DNA of 64,000 nt from Rickettsiales bacterium (GCA_044368015.1 JBIPLF010000005.1:2985-66984), one strand, 5' to 3'. Shown: positions 13,304 to 62,935, counted from the first letter of the stretch. Program-made: numbers and translations. Notes: generated by a model from the sequence alone, not told the origin.

Positions 13304-14104
13304 GTGACCCCCGAATTCTCACAGCTTACCCCCCTCACCCGTATTATGGCAGAGGCCGCCACCAAAGCCGGTCGGCAGGCATTGCGCGATTTTGGCAACC
13401 GTCCGGCGCTGAAAGTGACGCGTAAAGGGCCAACGGATTTTGTCACCAGCGCCGACCTGAAGGCAGAGAAAACCATCCGCCAAACCCTCGGCAAATACTA
13501 TCCGGATTACGGGCTGGTGCAGGAGGAAGGTGGCATTGTGGAAGGCACGCACCCCACCCGTCGCTGGGTGGTAGACCCGATCGACGGCACCAATAACTAC
13601 CTGCGCGGCCTTCCTTATTTCTGTATCTCCATCGGCCTGGAGGAGCAGCAGGCGAACGGCACGGCAGAACCCATCGCCGGAGTGGTGTATGCCCCCGCAA
13701 CCGATGAGCTCTTCTGGGCCGAACGCACCCATGGGGCCTATTGCAACAACCGTCGCTTACGCATTTCCGAATGCCACCGCCTGGAAGAAGCGATGGCCGT
13801 GGTCAGCAGCCGCACCATCTTCCGCCAGCCTGCGGCCCATCCGCTGGACGGCATCGCCAGCATGCGCTGCTTTGGCGCATCGGCACTCGATCTCGCCTAT
13901 TTTGCTGCCGGACGGATTGAAGTGCTGGTGCATCGCGGCCTCAGTTCGTGGGATATGGCGGGCGGTATCGTGATTGCACTGGAAGCAGGTGCCCAGATTG
14001 CCCAAAAACGCACGCTTGCGGACTGTTATGCATCAGGGGAATTCTGCATAACGACAGAGTCCCTCCTGCCCAAACTGCAAAAGCTCTTGAATCATGCCGC
14101 GTAA
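13304..14104 (+). CDS. Inositol monophosphatase family protein (SuhB-like)
   Basis: Contains WVVDPIDGTNNY and WDMAGG. 266 aa, GTG start. Confidence 0.9.
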   Translation: MTPEFSQLTPLTRIMAEAATKAGRQALRDFGNRPALKVTRKGPTDFVTSADLKAEKTIRQTLGKYYPDYGLVQEEGGIVEGTHPTRRWVVDPIDGTNNYLRGLPYFCISIGLEEQQANGTAEPIAGVVYAPATDELFWAERTHGAYCNNRRLRISECHRLEEAMAVVSSRTIFRQPAAHPLDGIASMRCFGASALDLAYFAAGRIEVLVHRGLSSWDMAGGIVIALEAGAQIAQKRTLADCYASGEFCITTESLLPKLQKLLNHAA

Positions 14105-14125: not shown

Positions 14126-16444
14126 ATGAAACAGGTGCGCGCATTATCGCTGGGTCGGGCTGGTCTGTTGTTTAGCGCAACGGCGCTTTCCTCCCTGTAT
14201 CCGTGGATTGCAGGTGCGTATGGTGGCGCTCGGCAGCTTCCGTCGGTGGAAGTGCATCTGGAAGCGCTGGATGATCTCACCCGCCAGCAAGTGCCGCCTC
14301 CCATGCCGGTGGAAACCACCCCGCCGGTACGCCAAACAGCACCCGCTCCCATGCCGCTGCCGGAGCCATACCGCCCTGCGCCTCAGGCCGTGATGCCGCC
14401 ACCTGCTCTTGTGCCCATGCCTGCCCCATCCAAACCCGCGCCGCAAACAGGATGGGAACTGGGGCTTCCCGGCGTCCCGCAACCTCAGGCAACCAAACCC
14501 GCCGCGGTCAAAGCCCCCGAACCGGTAAAGCCCAAGCCACGTCCCAAACCCACGCCTGCTCCTCGCATGGAAGCCCCGAAACCGGCGAAGCAAGCACCCG
14601 TCAAGGAACCGGTCGTGGTGGTGGTACCCGAAGCACCTAAGGCGAAGCCCGCACCCAAAGTGGAAGCGCTGCCACCGCCTCCACCGATGCCGGAAATGCC
14701 AGAACCACCAAAATTTGAACATCTGCCTCCTCCGCCTGCACCGGAAGCGGTGGCCGTTCCTCCGGTCAACGTAGAAAAACCCAAAACACAGGCCAAACAG
14801 GAAACGCCACCCGCCCCTGATCTGCCTCGCATAGACGCAGAGCAAAAGGCTCCACCGCCTCTCCCCAGCGAAGAACTGATCGTCATCGACAAACCCGCGC
14901 AACAGGAATCGACGAAGGGCATTGTGCCACCACTTCCTGATGCCGCTATCCCGCTGCCCGAAGAGCCGGAAAGTGAGGCGCCGCCTCCCCCGCCCGTGGC
15001 GGCTCCTCCTATGCCGGAACCTGCCCCAGCAACCGAAACCTTCAGCCCCAAGGAGGAAAAACCCGCCTATAAACGGGTGATCGATTGGCTGGTCCAAAGC
15101 GAAGACGAGCCAGAGGAGATCGCTCCACCCGCAAAGCCTGCAGTTAAACCCGCGATCGTCACCCCTTCGCCTGCTGCCGAAAAGCCAGAGGTAATGGAAA
15201 AGCCATCCCTCCCTCCCCTTCCGGACATGAAACCGGAGATGGACGCCGCACCCGCCAAGCCTTCCAAAGTGCAGGAATTGCCAGAGCTTGAGGAACTCCC
15301 CGCCGCATCCGAAGATGCACGGGATGGAACATTTGACCCTCCTCTGCCGCCCCTGCCACCGGTGAACGACCTGAAACCCGAGCCAGCCAAGCAGGCGCGA
15401 GCAGAGAAAAAGGCCGATAAACCAAAAGAATCGCCCAAAAAACAAGCCGCACCGGCCAAGTCAGCGAGCAAAGAAGACGCAGAGATTGAGCGGATGCTGG
15501 TAGGAGAAACCCCTCCGCCTGCATTGCCGGAAGTCGCATCCAGTGATACCGCCTTGCCGCCTCCACCGCCCCTTCCCGGTGAGGAGGAAAGCTTGCCGCC
15601 CCTCCCTAGCGCAGACGGAGATACCGACACGCCTCCCCCGCTTCCACCGGTCCCAAAGGAGCCATCCAAGGAATCTGCGGTGAAAAAAGATACCTTCGTC
15701 CCCGTGAAGGAAGAAGGGGTGATCACCAAAACCGTCTCGACCGTTAAGGGCTGGTTTGGTAAAGAAGAAGCACCACAGAAGGCAAAACCAGCCTCTATTC
15801 CCAAAGGAGAGCTGCCACCTCTACCTGCCGCAGGCAACAGTATATCGGGCCTCCCTCCGATCCCCAATGAGATGAAGGGGCCCCCCTCTCCGAAGGCGAA
15901 GGCAGCCCCCACCCCGCCCGTACAGGAGGGGAAGCTCCCTGACCTCTCCTCGCTGGAGCCAGAGGATGCGAAGGTTGAAATCCCGCCACCTTCCAAATTA
16001 CCGCCGGTATCAGACCTCTTCGACAAGCCGGGCAAAAAGCCCGTGCGCCCGGCAGGAAGTGCTGACGATCTGGCCTTCCTAGAAGGTAAAACAGAAACGG
16101 CATCGCCCCCTGAAGCTCCACCAGCGTCGGGTACCGGGGCAGGTACGCATGCCCTGTTGTTCAAGCCCACGGAAACAACCGTTCCCCTTTCCGAGGAAGC
16201 CGCCCTCTCAGCTCTGGCAACCCGCATTCAGTCAAAGGCCGATGCGCGGGTAACCGTGACGGCCTATGCCGGAGGAGATGACGCACAGGCTAGCGCCGCT
16301 CGCCGGGTATCTCTGTCCAGAGCGCTTTCTGTGCGCAGTTTCCTGATTGATAAAGGCGTGGCCAGCACCGCCATCACAGTGAGAACCATGGGGAACAAAC
16401 ATGCCAGTGGCGCACCGGACCGCGTCGATATCGAGTGGCGATAA
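14126..16444 (+). CDS. OmpA/MotB-domain protein with a ~650-aa proline-rich region
   Basis: Signal peptide MKQVRALSLGRAGLLFSATALS, then very long P/A/K/E-rich segments (PPPP, PPLP). The C-terminal OmpA-like domain reads VTVTAYAGGDD...RRVSLSRALSVRSFLIDKGV. Confidence 0.85.
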   Translation: MKQVRALSLGRAGLLFSATALSSLYPWIAGAYGGARQLPSVEVHLEALDDLTRQQVPPPMPVETTPPVRQTAPAPMPLPEPYRPAPQAVMPPPALVPMPAPSKPAPQTGWELGLPGVPQPQATKPAAVKAPEPVKPKPRPKPTPAPRMEAPKPAKQAPVKEPVVVVVPEAPKAKPAPKVEALPPPPPMPEMPEPPKFEHLPPPPAPEAVAVPPVNVEKPKTQAKQETPPAPDLPRIDAEQKAPPPLPSEELIVIDKPAQQESTKGIVPPLPDAAIPLPEEPESEAPPPPPVAAPPMPEPAPATETFSPKEEKPAYKRVIDWLVQSEDEPEEIAPPAKPAVKPAIVTPSPAAEKPEVMEKPSLPPLPDMKPEMDAAPAKPSKVQELPELEELPAASEDARDGTFDPPLPPLPPVNDLKPEPAKQARAEKKADKPKESPKKQAAPAKSASKEDAEIERMLVGETPPPALPEVASSDTALPPPPPLPGEEESLPPLPSADGDTDTPPPLPPVPKEPSKESAVKKDTFVPVKEEGVITKTVSTVKGWFGKEEAPQKAKPASIPKGELPPLPAAGNSISGLPPIPNEMKGPPSPKAKAAPTPPVQEGKLPDLSSLEPEDAKVEIPPPSKLPPVSDLFDKPGKKPVRPAGSADDLAFLEGKTETASPPEAPPASGTGAGTHALLFKPTETTVPLSEEAALSALATRIQSKADARVTVTAYAGGDDAQASAARRVSLSRALSVRSFLIDKGVASTAITVRTMGNKHASGAPDRVDIEWR

Positions 16445-37154: not shown

Positions 37155-37193
37155 GTCCCTCTCCCGCTTGCGGGGGGTTAGGGAGGGGTGTTG
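37155..37193. repeat. Half-copy of the family P palindromic element
   Basis: GTCCCTCTCCCGCTTGCGGGGGGTTAGGGAGGGGTGTTG matches the right arm of the elements at 52875-53078 and 62198-62386. Confidence 0.7.
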
Positions 37194-43677: not shown

Positions 43678-43735
43678 GATCAGGATTCGGGATTCAGGGG
43701 TCAGTAAACGCCCCCTCCCTATCCCTCCGCTTCGC
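43678..43735. repeat. GGATTCA-type heptamer module plus the left arm of family P
   Basis: GATCAGGATTCGGGATTCAGGGGTCAG followed by CCCCCTCCCTATCCCTCCGCTTCGC. Confidence 0.75.
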
Positions 43736-52475: not shown

Positions 52476-53447
52476 ATGACCCCACTCTCCTTCATCCACA
52501 CGTTGGCCGACCTCGCGGGCGAGGTACTCCGCCCCTATTACCGCTCGCCGCTGGTGATTGATTCCAAGGGCGACCGCTCGCCGGTTACCGAGGCCGACCG
52601 CGCCGTGGAACGTGCCTTGCGGGAAGCCATCCGCAAGGCCTATCCGGAGCATGGGATTGTGGGGGAGGAATACGGCGCGGAAAACCCGGACGCCGAGTTC
52701 TGCTGGTATCTGGACCCCATCGACGGCACGCTGTCCTTCATGCATGGCAAGCCGCTCTTCACCACGCTGATTGCGCTCTGCCATCGCGGCATTCCGGTGC
52801 TGGGATGCATCGACCAGCCGATTCTTGGGGATCGCTGGGTGGGGGGAAAGGACGCACCGACGGTGCATCAGGGGTCAGGGTTCAGGATTCAGGATTCAGG
52901 ATACCCCCTCCCTATCCCTCCCCCGCAAGCGGGAGAGGGGACCGGAGGAGAGGCCTCTCCTACTGACCAAACGTTGATCGTAAAGCGCGATGGTGCATCC
53001 GGTCCCCTCTCCCGCTTGCGTGGGAGGGATAGGGAGGGGGTGTTGTTTGCAAGCCACCAGCCACTAATCACTAGCCACTGTAAAACCCGCCCCTACACCT
53101 CCCTCGCCGAGGCCAGCTTCTCCACCACCTCGCCCTATCTCTTTAACCCGCAGGAGCGGGCGGCGTTTGAGCGCATCCGCGAGCAGTGCCGCTACACGCT
53201 GTTTGGGGGCGATGCCTACGCCTACGGGATGCTCGCTTCCGGGCAGATCGATTTAGTAGTGGAGGCAGGCTTACAGGATCACGATTTTCTGCCGCTCGTC
53301 GCGGTGATTGAAGGCGCGGGCGGCATCATGACCGACTGGGAGGGCAACCCGCTCACCACCCAATCCGACGGACGGGTGATCGCCGCGGGGGATAGAAGAG
53401 TGCATGCACAGGTGGTGGGGATGCTATCGGGAGGAGGACCCATGTAA
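52476..53447 (+). CDS. Inositol monophosphatase family protein, histidinol-phosphatase (HisN)-like, carrying a 68-codon in-frame repeat insertion
   Basis: Contains SPVTEADRAVE, WYLDPIDGT, FGGDAYAYGMLASGQIDLVVE and LPLVAVIEGAGGIMTDW. The conserved sequence is interrupted at 52875-53078. Confidence 0.85.
   Translation: MTPLSFIHTLADLAGEVLRPYYRSPLVIDSKGDRSPVTEADRAVERALREAIRKAYPEHGIVGEEYGAENPDAEFCWYLDPIDGTLSFMHGKPLFTTLIALCHRGIPVLGCIDQPILGDRWVGGKDAPTVHQGSGFRIQDSGYPLPIPPPQAGEGTGGEASPTDQTLIVKRDGASGPLSRLRGRDREGVLFASHQPLITSHCKTRPYTSLAEASFSTTSPYLFNPQERAAFERIREQCRYTLFGGDAYAYGMLASGQIDLVVEAGLQDHDFLPLVAVIEGAGGIMTDWEGNPLTTQSDGRVIAAGDRRVHAQVVGMLSGGGPM
52875..53078. repeat. Composite repeat inside the CDS: GGATTCA heptamers + family P palindrome + CCACT/AGCCAC module
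   Basis: 204 nt (68 codons). TCAGGGTTCAGGATTCAGGATTCAGGATA, then CCCCCTCCCTATCCCTCCCCCGCAAGCGGGAGAGGGGACCGG...CCGGTCCCCTCTCCCGCTTGCGTGGGAGGGATAGGGAGGGGG. Confidence 0.85.
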
Positions 53448-60980: not shown

Positions 60981-61358
60981 ATGAGTCCCTGGCTGTTCCT
61001 CTTCGCCTCAATTGCGCTCGAAATCACCGCCACCACGCTGCTGCGGATGTCCGAGGGTTTCGCGCATATGCAGTATGCGGTGATTTCGGTCTGCCTGTAT
61101 ATTGTGTGCTTCTTTTGTTTTTCGCAAAGCCTGAAGGTGATTCCGCTCAGCGTCGCCATTTCCATCTGGTCGGGGGTGGGAGTGTTGTGCATTTCCCTCA
61201 TCAGTGCGCGGTTGTTTGCGGAGGGCTTCCCGCCACTTAAAATTGCGCTGATTGGTATGGTTGTCACCGGCTGCGTGGGGCTGATGGCGATCACGAAGAC
61301 GCAGGATTCAGGTGCCGGGATTCAGGATTCAGAACAGAAGCAAGGACCCGTCTCGTGA
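60981..61358 (+). CDS. SMR family small multidrug resistance transporter
   Basis: MSPWLFLFASIALEITATTLLRMSEGF (with the conserved membrane Glu) and four TM segments. The C-terminal tail TQDSGAGIQDSEQ is encoded by GGATTCA heptamers. Confidence 0.88.
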   Translation: MSPWLFLFASIALEITATTLLRMSEGFAHMQYAVISVCLYIVCFFCFSQSLKVIPLSVAISIWSGVGVLCISLISARLFAEGFPPLKIALIGMVVTGCVGLMAITKTQDSGAGIQDSEQKQGPVS

Positions 61359-62935
61359 CCCCCCTCTGGACCGCCGCGGAAGTGCGCGAAGCCACGCATG
61401 GCACCGGAGCGGGCGAGTGGCAGGCCAGTGGCGTTTCCATTGATACCCGCAGCCTGCAACCGGGCGACCTGTTCATTGCACTCACCGGATCGCAAAGCGA
61501 CGGGCACCGCTATCTGGCACAGGCAGCCGAGAAGGGCGCCGTGGCGGCGATCGTCTCGCAGGAGGTGGCATCCCCCCTCCCCTCCATCCGCGTCCCGGAT
61601 ACCGAAAAGGCGCTGTGGGCACTTGGAGTGGCGGCACGCGCACGCACGCAGGCGACCATCCTCGCCGTAACGGGGAGTGTGGGCAAAACCACCGCCAAGG
61701 AAATGCTGCGCGCCGCTTTCGCCGCCTATGGCACCACCTACGCTACCGGCGGCAATTTCAACAACCATCTGGGTGCGCCGCTCAGCCTCGCCCGGATGCC
61801 CCGCGATACCGAGTACGGTATTTTTGAACTGGGCATGAACCATGCGGGCGAACTTGCCGCCCTCACCCGGCTGGTCACGCCGCATGTGGCGATGATCACC
61901 ACCGTAGCCGCCGCGCATCTGGAGCATTTTGCCTCCGAGGCCGCGATTGCCGACGCCAAGGCCGAGATTTTTGAGGGGCTTTCCAGAAAGCAGGTTTCAG
62001 GATTCAGGATTCAGGCACAGGGCATCGCCCTGATCCCCAGCGACAATCCCCACACCCCCCGGCTGCGGGAAGCGGCAACGCACCATGCCACCCGCATTGC
62101 CGCCTTCGGGCGTAGCGGCGATACCGATATGCAGGTGGTGGGAACGGTGCCGGAGGGGGAAAGACTTCGCGTCTCCCTTCATTTAAAGCACACATCCCCC
62201 CCCCTCCCTATCCCTCCCCCGCAAGCGGGAGAGGGAACCGGATGCAGCATCACGCCTCACGACCAGCATCTGTTTACAGGAGAGGCCTTTCCTCCGGTCC
62301 CCTCTCCCGCGGAGCGGGGGAGGTTGGAGGCAGTGCCTCCAAGGGAGGAGGTAACACACAACTGGCAACTGACAACTGGCAACTATTCCCTCTCCCTGCC
62401 CTCTCTCGCCGAGCATTGGGCAGACCTCGCCGCGCTGACCCTGCTGGCGGTGACGTCCCTGCATCTGCCGCCCGCGCCCGCGATGGCCGCACTGGAAACC
62501 ATGCCGGTTCCCGAAGGGCGCGGCGGTTGGCGAACCGCGACCATCAACGGGGCGTCGATCCGGGTGATGGATGATAGCTACAATGCCAACCCCGCTTCGA
62601 TGGCGGCAGCACTCTGCACCTTTGCCCGTACGCCGGTCACAGGGCGACGCATTGCACTGCTGGGGGATATGCTGGAGCTGGGACCGGGCGCGCCCCGCTT
62701 CCACCGCGAGTTGGCGGCAGTGATTGCCCCCCTCCCCCTTGATCTGGTCGGTAGCTCCGGACCGTTGATGCGCCATCTGCATGACGCGTTGCCGGAAGGG
62801 CTGCGCGGTCCCCATGCCGAGACGCCGGAAACCTTATGGGAACGGCTTCAACCGCAACTCAGGGCAGGCGACGCGCTCCTCATCAAAGGTTCGCATGGCA
62901 GCGGGATGTATCGGTTGGTGAAGGGGTTATCCTGA
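61355..62935 (+). CDS. murF: UDP-N-acetylmuramoyl-tripeptide--D-alanyl-D-alanine ligase, carrying in-frame repeat insertions
   Basis: Contains LQPGDLFIAL, TGSVGKTTAKEM, NNHLGAPLSL and DSYNANP. Interrupted at 61994-62020 and 62198-62386. The GTG start overlaps the SMR stop. Confidence 0.92.
   Translation: MTPLWTAAEVREATHGTGAGEWQASGVSIDTRSLQPGDLFIALTGSQSDGHRYLAQAAEKGAVAAIVSQEVASPLPSIRVPDTEKALWALGVAARARTQATILAVTGSVGKTTAKEMLRAAFAAYGTTYATGGNFNNHLGAPLSLARMPRDTEYGIFELGMNHAGELAALTRLVTPHVAMITTVAAAHLEHFASEAAIADAKAEIFEGLSRKQVSGFRIQAQGIALIPSDNPHTPRLREAATHHATRIAAFGRSGDTDMQVVGTVPEGERLRVSLHLKHTSPPLPIPPPQAGEGTGCSITPHDQHLFTGEAFPPVPSPAERGRLEAVPPREEVTHNWQLTTGNYSLSLPSLAEHWADLAALTLLAVTSLHLPPAPAMAALETMPVPEGRGGWRTATINGASIRVMDDSYNANPASMAAALCTFARTPVTGRRIALLGDMLELGPGAPRFHRELAAVIAPLPLDLVGSSGPLMRHLHDALPEGLRGPHAETPETLWERLQPQLRAGDALLIKGSHGSGMYRLVKGLS
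62198..62386. repeat. Family P palindromic element + ACTGGCAACT module inside murF
   Basis: 189 nt (63 codons). The arms match the copy at 52875-53078, and the central ~52 nt is the reverse complement of that copy. Confidence 0.85.

Follow-up and report, generated by a model that had tools for sequence, protein, structure and literature searches.

In-frame insertion of a palindromic hairpin repeat into a predicted histidinol-phosphatase gene of a Rickettsiales bacterium, and unit ends shared with DUF559 nuclease genes

What became of an enzyme whose gene is interrupted by about two hundred nucleotides of repetitive, palindromic DNA without loss of the reading frame? The question is raised by the hisN gene in a stretch of 64,000 nt from a Rickettsiales bacterium (GCA_044368015.1 JBIPLF010000005.1:2985-66984; G000:C8:2985-66984), hereafter the window, to which all coordinates without a contig name refer. 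The genome comprises 1.92 Mb in 87 contigs with 57 % G+C and a marker completeness of 100 %. Its IlvC matched many Alphaproteobacteria with 71-81 % identity, too evenly for a closer placement. hisN (52476..53447, plus strand) encodes an inositol monophosphatase (IMPase)-type histidinol-phosphate phosphatase (HPP) of 323 aa including the insert. A preliminary description of the window had placed a composite repeat of heptamers, a long palindrome and an AGCCAC module at 52875-53078, and direct reading together with an arm search returned these parts. It had also stated that the insertion keeps the frame and has no stop; the open reading frame (ORF) 52476-53447 is indeed open throughout. We consider it likely that a non-autonomous selfish hairpin repeat was inserted into hisN and kept in frame, the enzyme being predicted from its sequence to be functional.

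The insertion is a clean indel. All 19 orthologues, extracted from related genomes and in four cases from the same family, presented a gap of 66 alignment columns between ...HQG and SHCKT...; two of these insert-less relatives themselves carry the hairpin unit. A homologous segment in an orthologue, named beforehand as an objection to the insertion, was present in none of those examined. In a search of 5.8 billion proteins, the 119 best homologues (query excluded) have a length of 244-279 aa and lack the insert, and the insert peptide searched against the same set matched only hisN and queA of the same organism. In the alignment to PDB 4n81, residues 6-134 of the query correspond to 12-140 of the chain and residues 204-309 to 144-249. 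Together with the 66-column gap, this softens the 68 codons proposed initially to 66-68. The final AGCCAC could belong either to the repeat or to the native gene.

The palindrome measures 139 nt in total, with arms of 44 nt that are 98 % complementary and enclose 51 nt, and heptamer tracts border it on both sides (Table 1). Each arm is laid out as a 12-nt tail and an imperfect hairpin. Judged by this layout, the core (137-139 nt) is a head-to-head pair of ~40-nt tail-plus-hairpin units joined by the 51-nt centre. The left tract is read as (Q)GSGFRIQDSG, its unit 1 (TCAGGGG) overlapping conserved Gln-Gly codons. The right tract opens with AGCCACC; a T at 53058, as in the consensus, would produce an in-frame TAG. 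Folded as RNA, the insert region reaches -137 kcal/mol (z = -9.8), and 0 of 200 shuffles were equally stable. A search of the insert against Rfam yielded only far-sub-threshold look-alikes of miRNA precursors, i.e., generic long hairpins, and no bacterial RNA or intron family. A promoter and terminator scan found neither inside the insert, the simple scan being blind to stems with long loops. Other ways of interrupting a gene were rejected: an intron by the absence of any intron family in the Rfam search, an intein by the lack of a Hint domain, by Inositol_P as the only Pfam match, by junctions (G/S and H/C) without intein blocks and by the repeat origin of the insert, and translational bypassing as in gene 60 of T4 by an insert that is open in frame, without a stop after a take-off codon.

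Table 1 Parts of the hisN insert and related copies in the window
Feature	Coordinates	Strand	Description
Left heptamer tract	52868..52902	+	(TCAGGAT)-type x5: TCAGGGG TCAGGGT TCAGGAT x3
Left arm	52903..52946	+	5' tail CCCCCTCCCTAT, then hairpin CCCTCCCCCGC-AA-GCGGGAGAGGG
Palindrome centre	52947..52997	+	51 nt, includes small palindrome GGAGAGGCCTCTCC; most variable part among copies
Right arm	52998..53041	+	inverted copy of left arm, one mismatch (GCGTGGG)
T-rich spacer	53042..53051	+	10 nt, GTTGTTTGCA
Right heptamer tract	53052..53079	+	(AGCCACT)-type x4: AGCCACC AGCCACT AATCACT AGCCACT; read as SHQPLITSH
Sister copy inside murF (ORF 61355-62935)	62200..62325	-	nhmmer, open frame, Pfam
Partial copy, heptamer tract and truncated arm	43678..43735	+	intergenic, 9 nt 3' of the stop of an ornithine-carbamoyltransferase-like ORF (translation reading)
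Single degenerate hairpin unit	37155..37193	+	intergenic, 26 nt 3' of the stop of an alpha-glucosidase-like ORF (translation reading)

The host protein has the features of a HisN. Its only match in the Pfam scan was Inositol_P. With the insert present, the equivalog profile TIGR02067 scored 269.3 bits in two stretches, below the curated cut-off of 275.15; after excision of 66 aa the score rose to 281.9 bits in a single stretch covering profile positions 3-251 of 252. The enzyme 4n81 from Z. mobilis is an experimentally shown histidinol-phosphatase (PMC5516325). With the motif definitions of Kulis-Horn et al. (PMC5516325; motifs 1-6, motif 5 being GGD-x-Y-x-Y), we located motif 1 as SKGDRSPVTEAD (K31/D33/PVT), motif 2 as GEE (G63-E64-E65), motif 3 as LDPIDGT (D80-PIDGT), motif 4 as HGKPLFTTLIAL, motif 5 as FGGDAYAY and motif 6 in the region of D270. 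The invariant columns are kept, namely the metal ligands, E64/E65, D80-T85 and D270. Two other IMPase-family paralogues of the genome reached at most 158 bits with TIGR02067 in the profile search. Genes for hisD, IGPD (hisB) and hisC each scored above their cut-offs in the 1.9-Mb genome, and profile searches of the genome for PHP-type and HAD-type histidinol-phosphatases returned none. By these profiles, hisN is the sole recognisable histidinol-phosphatase of a genome that keeps hisC, hisB and hisD. A second intact hisN, the other objection foreseen in the preliminary description, was not among the paralogues: the gene at 13304-14104 scored only 157.8 bits and has SuhB-type motifs (FGASALDL). 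Adjacent to this SuhB-like gene lies an ORF (14126-16444) for 772 aa, extremely rich in Pro, Ala and Lys, with a C-terminus that looks OmpA-like.

An AlphaFold2 model based on 44 sequences had a predicted local distance difference test (pLDDT) value above 90 for 236 residues and a predicted template modelling score (pTM) of 0.81. Superposition gave TM-scores of 0.89 to 4n81, 0.84-0.87 to plant HPP and 0.90 to HisN of M. tuberculosis. Residues 134-201, the insert, formed a low-confidence coil between the strands 127-133 and 198-201. In the model the insert occupies the turn that joins two antiparallel beta-strands and lies between the HisN motifs 4 and 5. Mapping of the insertion point, suggested at the outset as a check for a surface loop, thus led to a beta-hairpin turn and a predicted disordered loop. 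Probably the insert is translated as a tolerated Pro/Gly/Arg-rich loop of 66-68 disordered residues and hisN still works.

The element is not confined to hisN. A survey of the genome by iterated nhmmer revealed 74 related loci, several at contig ends; 30 were full length (135-140 nt), and partial matches to model positions ~96-137 represent single units beside 30 doublets. In the copy alignment the arms are near-invariant, the differences falling into the centre and the small arm loops; the units terminate in CCCCCTCCC... and ...GGGGAC(CGGA). Of the 201 genomes of the order, this one alone contained the full-length core. The flanks of 30 copies, inspected for features of miniature inverted-repeat transposable elements, presented inverted arms and no consistent direct duplication, only a YA...TR extension of the palindrome. 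The two intergenic occurrences of the modules pointed out beforehand are real, but are partial copies only (Table 1).

At least 12 copies are located mid-gene within long open frames. Ten of these are read in phase 2, irrespective of the orientation of the core. Besides hisN the hosts include murF, murE, dapD, ribD, bioD, queA, addA, a GT4 glycosyltransferase gene, a thrB-like APH gene and mrp/nuoN. Full-length in-frame copies encode PLPIPPPQAGEGTG...PVPSPAxRGRDREGV or a close variant. The Pfam scan covered nine host frames, and addA was judged by translation alone. In several frames, e.g., murF, ribD, dapD, queA and the GT4 glycosyltransferase, host domains were recognised before and after the element; the best match lay on one side only in bioD (two copies), the thrB-like APH gene and mrp/nuoN. 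In the stop-to-stop frame of murF, Mur_ligase_M occupies 143-297, the element 320-362 and Mur_ligase_C 431-552. A core specially designed to be free of stops was considered and rejected: 64 of the 180 frames of full copies are open, about the number roughly estimated for GC-rich sequence.

Two further host loci deserve a description of their own. The copy at G000:C3:26902-27038 joins murE and a HAD-family hydrolase gene in one frame of 748 aa, the Mur ligase domains ending at 444 and HAD_2 starting at 534, an apparent repeat-mediated gene fusion. The bioD frame of 381 aa (G000:C31:1975-2477) contains two shorter variants of the element (PHPSLSHREREPEERPL...GEGGVRE) with degenerate heptamer borders.

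Several points weigh against a working hisN. The 44-bp GC-rich RNA stem in the ORF could attract RNase III or slow ribosomes, the T-rich spacer after the stem might attenuate transcription, and with arms still 98 % complementary the copy could be young, its decay perhaps just not begun. On a rival reading the gene would be knocked out, a pseudogene too young to have acquired stops, in a histidine auxotroph or in a cell served by a promiscuous phosphatase, e.g., the SuhB-like protein of 13304-14104. This reading, which we regard as improbable, draws on the 68 extra residues placed centrally in a compact enzyme of two domains, the very stable mRNA hairpin, near-perfect arms compatible with a recent insertion, the two other IMPase-family paralogues in the genome and the histidinol-phosphatase activity of a second IMPase-like enzyme of C. 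glutamicum (PMC5516325). It is opposed by the intactness of all catalytic and HisN-specific motifs, by the retention of hisC, hisB and hisD in 1.9 Mb, by the position at a modelled beta-hairpin turn and by the right heptamer tract, which departs from its consensus exactly where the TAG would arise. The closest sister copy is only 91 % identical, hence the insert is not obviously brand new. Moreover, the element is read through in murF, murE, dapD and others, and that all these genes are dead is implausible given the complete set of marker genes.

The recurrence of the same sequence between genes and within a dozen genes unrelated to one another argues against a role specific to hisN, nothing is found at this hisN site in any orthologue, and the insert is predicted to be disordered. 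We hold it for very unlikely that the insert was co-opted, either as a loop that gives HisN an interaction or as an RNA or DNA hairpin that regulates hisN through mRNA stability, attenuation or replication pausing, although conservation among copies is far stronger in the arms than in the centre, the stability of the structure is extreme, and units of the BoxC/TMECO type adopt a triplex form in vitro and go along with local instability of the genome (PMC4666352). A repeat-induced chimera that placed the element inside hisN during assembly is suggested by the draft state of the genome with its 87 contigs, several of which end within copies of this repeat. Its probability is nearly negligible: both gene halves are on one contig in one frame and meet at a single point of the orthologue alignment, eleven further in-frame cases would each have to be chance mis-joins, and the identical protein recurs on a second record, a contig of 202 kb beside that of 70 kb, which argues against a mis-assembly. 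An in-frame selfish repeat in a functional hisN is the reading we retain.

The heptamers accompany the copies unevenly. A tract, i.e., 12 or more of 14 lag-7 matches no farther than 45 nt from a copy (0.3 % of random windows), was found beside 10 of the 12 mid-gene copies vs 3 of the 30 others (Fisher p = 1e-5, with copies that are not independent and mid-gene labels assigned by us). The genome contains 56 tracts of the TCAGGAT type, many as stand-alone facing pairs; 29 are located within long frames and just 13 adjoin a core, which marks the tracts as a separate module tolerated by genes. In murF, one such separate tract (61990-62017, read as VSGFRIQAQG) is located upstream of the palindrome copy. 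Slippage-prone heptamers (7 = 1 mod 3) might let cores with a length that is no multiple of three survive in genes (137 + 7 = 144), a rescue of the frame that we consider rather doubtful. Alternatively, the tracts may mark permissive sites that were already occupied. Cores may land in tracts, or tract-core composites may move as units.

The arms belong to a known architecture. On the complementary strand the hisN arm reads CCCTCTCCC-N7-GGGGGAGGG-ATA-GGGAGGGGG, a relaxed triplex-motif pattern (sites 52904 and 62200, minus strand). Measured against the strict TMECO consensus CCCTCNCCC-N3-6-GGGNGAGGG-N3-GGGNGAGGG (PMC4666352), the hisN arms deviate by a loop of 7-8 nt and by the third block GGGAGGGGG. 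The general BoxC/PIT/TMECO architecture, i.e., a pyrimidine block, a loop, a complementary purine block, N3 and a second purine block, is present in the arms of the hisN and murF copies. In the genome, 31 units followed the strict consensus and 136 the relaxed pattern, while the shuffled genome had 0. One of the 31 strict units, CCCTCTCCCTGTGGGAGAGGGCCGGGGTGAGGG, is situated at 7901-7933. A strict-type doublet of this genome used as query matched 3676 of 5426 E. coli genomes. In E. coli MG1655 the BoxC/PIT/TMECO units are reported to be always intergenic and without a mobility function nearby (Holder et al. 2015, PMC4666352). The BoxC-like doublet in the flgG-flgH gap of E. coli 042, the one locus examined, had no DUF559 gene nearby; the association with DUF559 described in the following is thus not universal.

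In the genome studied, hairpin-plus-tail units bracket all three DUF559 genes, which are free-standing. At C82:44263-44571 the sequence ...GGGTTAGGGAGGGGG ends 8 nt before the ATG and CCCTCCCCCTATCCC... begins 3 nt after the stop; the DUF559 gene at C29:5272-5583 runs directly into a full core. The third gene (C68:31-348) is preceded by a strict BoxC-type doublet, and its contig ends 6 nt past the stop. This suggests that every DUF559 gene could have a repeat subfamily as its partner. Among the 200 other genomes of the order, 29 contained the 39-nt arm with 82-100 % identity and without the full core, and 57 contained DUF559, about half of the 95 matches being located in open frames of more than 400 aa. 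By Pfam, the hosts were class-I aminoacyl-tRNA synthetases, Mfd, RecJ, an aminotransferase and AroE, without a Hint domain. Inverted repeats flanked 25 of 29 DUF559 domains of the order vs 2 of 290 control windows; DUF559 was present in 27 of 29 arm-positive vs 30 of 171 arm-negative genomes (p = 2e-15), and 8 of the ~85 arm loci in other genomes lay within 100 nt of a DUF559 gene (0.04 by chance).

In one relative the arm brackets a DUF559 domain that is read in frame inside valyl-tRNA synthetase (ValRS). At two sites in ValRS, 1 and 2, some families have the cassette and others either pairs of units lacking a nuclease or no insertion; our genome has nuclease-less unit pairs at site 2. Its ValRS gene (G000:C21:13388-16381) has at least two inserts coded by hairpins or heptamers, one of them before LYPADLRPQAHEIIRTW, where two relatives (L162, L168) carry a full in-frame DUF559 cassette. 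A comparison of flanking peptides by eye placed the cassettes of six further loci from five families (L144, L148, L150, L154, L158, L167; genomes G142, G052, G016, G002, G020, G047) at apparently one site of a class-I aminoacyl-tRNA synthetase, ...YACVxVE / cassette / VCYILAK..., with differing variants of the hairpin unit. A description of hairpin-flanked in-frame DUF559 cassettes was found neither in the consulted papers mentioning DUF559 nor in a survey of PD-(D/E)xK nucleases. The hisN insert holds no nuclease; its end units are common with DUF559 cassettes and free-standing DUF559 genes, in opposite relative orientation.

By analogy to REP-RAYT, i.e., repetitive extragenic palindromic (REP) units and their REP-associated tyrosine transposases (RAYT), the DUF559 nucleases, which are Vsr-like PD-(D/E)xK enzymes, might act in trans on the units that bracket their own genes; we put this forward as a tentative mechanism with somewhat less than even prospects. 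A still more speculative extension makes the BoxC/PIT/TMECO repeats the ends of a selfish DUF559 element, the cassette of which would settle in frame in conserved genes, repeatedly at the same positions and unspliced. The hisN core and other pairs that lack a nuclease would derive from it as non-autonomous forms, mobilised or kept up in trans, and the heptamer tracts would serve as frame adaptors in essential genes. Against these proposals it has to be said that the co-occurrence statistics of arm and DUF559 are inflated by the kinship of the genomes, that the cassette tails face the nuclease gene while those of the hisN core face outward, that many units are solitary, and that the link comes without a known cleavage site or target duplication. 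A nuclease has never been seen at the hisN site, and the DUF559 nuclease could be a passenger.

In-frame palindromic repeats as such are already known; new are the heptamer borders of the mid-gene copies and the ends common with DUF559 genes. The genome is a well-documented case outside Rickettsia of a selfish palindrome in frame in a dozen essential or housekeeping enzymes and shows how far the insertion of loops is tolerated. For annotation, such inserts drop genuine enzymes below curated profile cut-offs (269 vs 275 bits) and can fuse neighbours, as in murE-HAD. We know of no established origin or mobility of the BoxC/PIT/TMECO repeats since the 1990s, and the shared DUF559 ends offer a concrete candidate for the maker or mover of BoxC-type repeats. 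In-frame repeats like the Rickettsia palindromic elements (RPEs), the unexplained BoxC/PIT/TMECO repeats and the uncharacterised DUF559 nucleases are thereby joined in a single hypothesis open to testing, that of a nuclease and its cognate hairpin ends as an analogue of RAYT-REP.

Among known systems, the closest behaviour is that of the RPEs, palindromic repeats inserted in frame in unrelated Rickettsia genes (Ogata et al. 2000, as summarised in PMC10969869 and PMC3733652). Here as there, palindromes of ~140-150 bp are dispersed in a small alphaproteobacterial genome, and many in-frame copies amount to extra peptide loops; the element agrees with RPEs in being a dispersed palindromic repeat of ~100-150 bp with many in-frame copies in unrelated ORFs. 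The RPE-like behaviour proposed in the preliminary description is borne out by the clean in-frame indel, the dispersed palindrome family and at least 11 other in-frame gene positions. Its addition that such behaviour is rare outside that group was somewhat overstated, as in-frame repeats outside Rickettsia have been published (Di Nocera et al. 2013, PMC3733652). The core differs from RPEs by its GC-richness, BoxC/TMECO-like units, heptamer borders on mid-gene copies and units that bracket DUF559. Rickettsia genomes are AT-rich. The hisN element is likened to RPEs by behaviour; the tests run, in which the RPE sequences themselves were not compared, gave no sign of homology to RPEs.

Intragenic REPs outside Rickettsia and REPs as singlets and head-to-head dimers have been described (Di Nocera et al. 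2013, PMC3733652), and the REP/REPIN-RAYT system shares short imperfect palindromes as singlets and head-to-head dimers, some in genes, and a small nuclease-type gene with inverted flanking units. The palindromic units of 20-40 nt found here likewise occur as singlets and inverted doublets, and the units alone in 29 of the 200 other genomes. The GTAG/CGTC tag of REPs was absent from the unit ends in the copy alignment. RAYT (Y1_Tnp, PF01797) had no match in the genome with 100 % marker completeness, whereas control genomes matched, the search being directed at this one type of parent transposase. The flanked gene is in our case a PD-(D/E)xK DUF559 without RAYT. With BoxC/PIT/TMECO the element has the unit architecture in common as well as the occurrence as singles and inverted pairs; in contrast to the intergenic units of MG1655, its units are read in frame within genes and flank DUF559 genes. 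From homing endonucleases and inteins the system differs by the lack of an intron, a Hint or an intein domain, so that the insert apparently stays in the protein, and by the absence of a nuclease from the hisN copy. What resembles the Vsr-like homing endonucleases (I-Bth0305I, PMC3239194; fractured genes, PMC2677866) is that the related DUF559 cassettes of relatives recur in different families at the same sites of conserved genes (ValRS sites 1 and 2), with nuclease-less remnants at these sites, a pattern that looks like the life cycle of a homing endonuclease without splicing.

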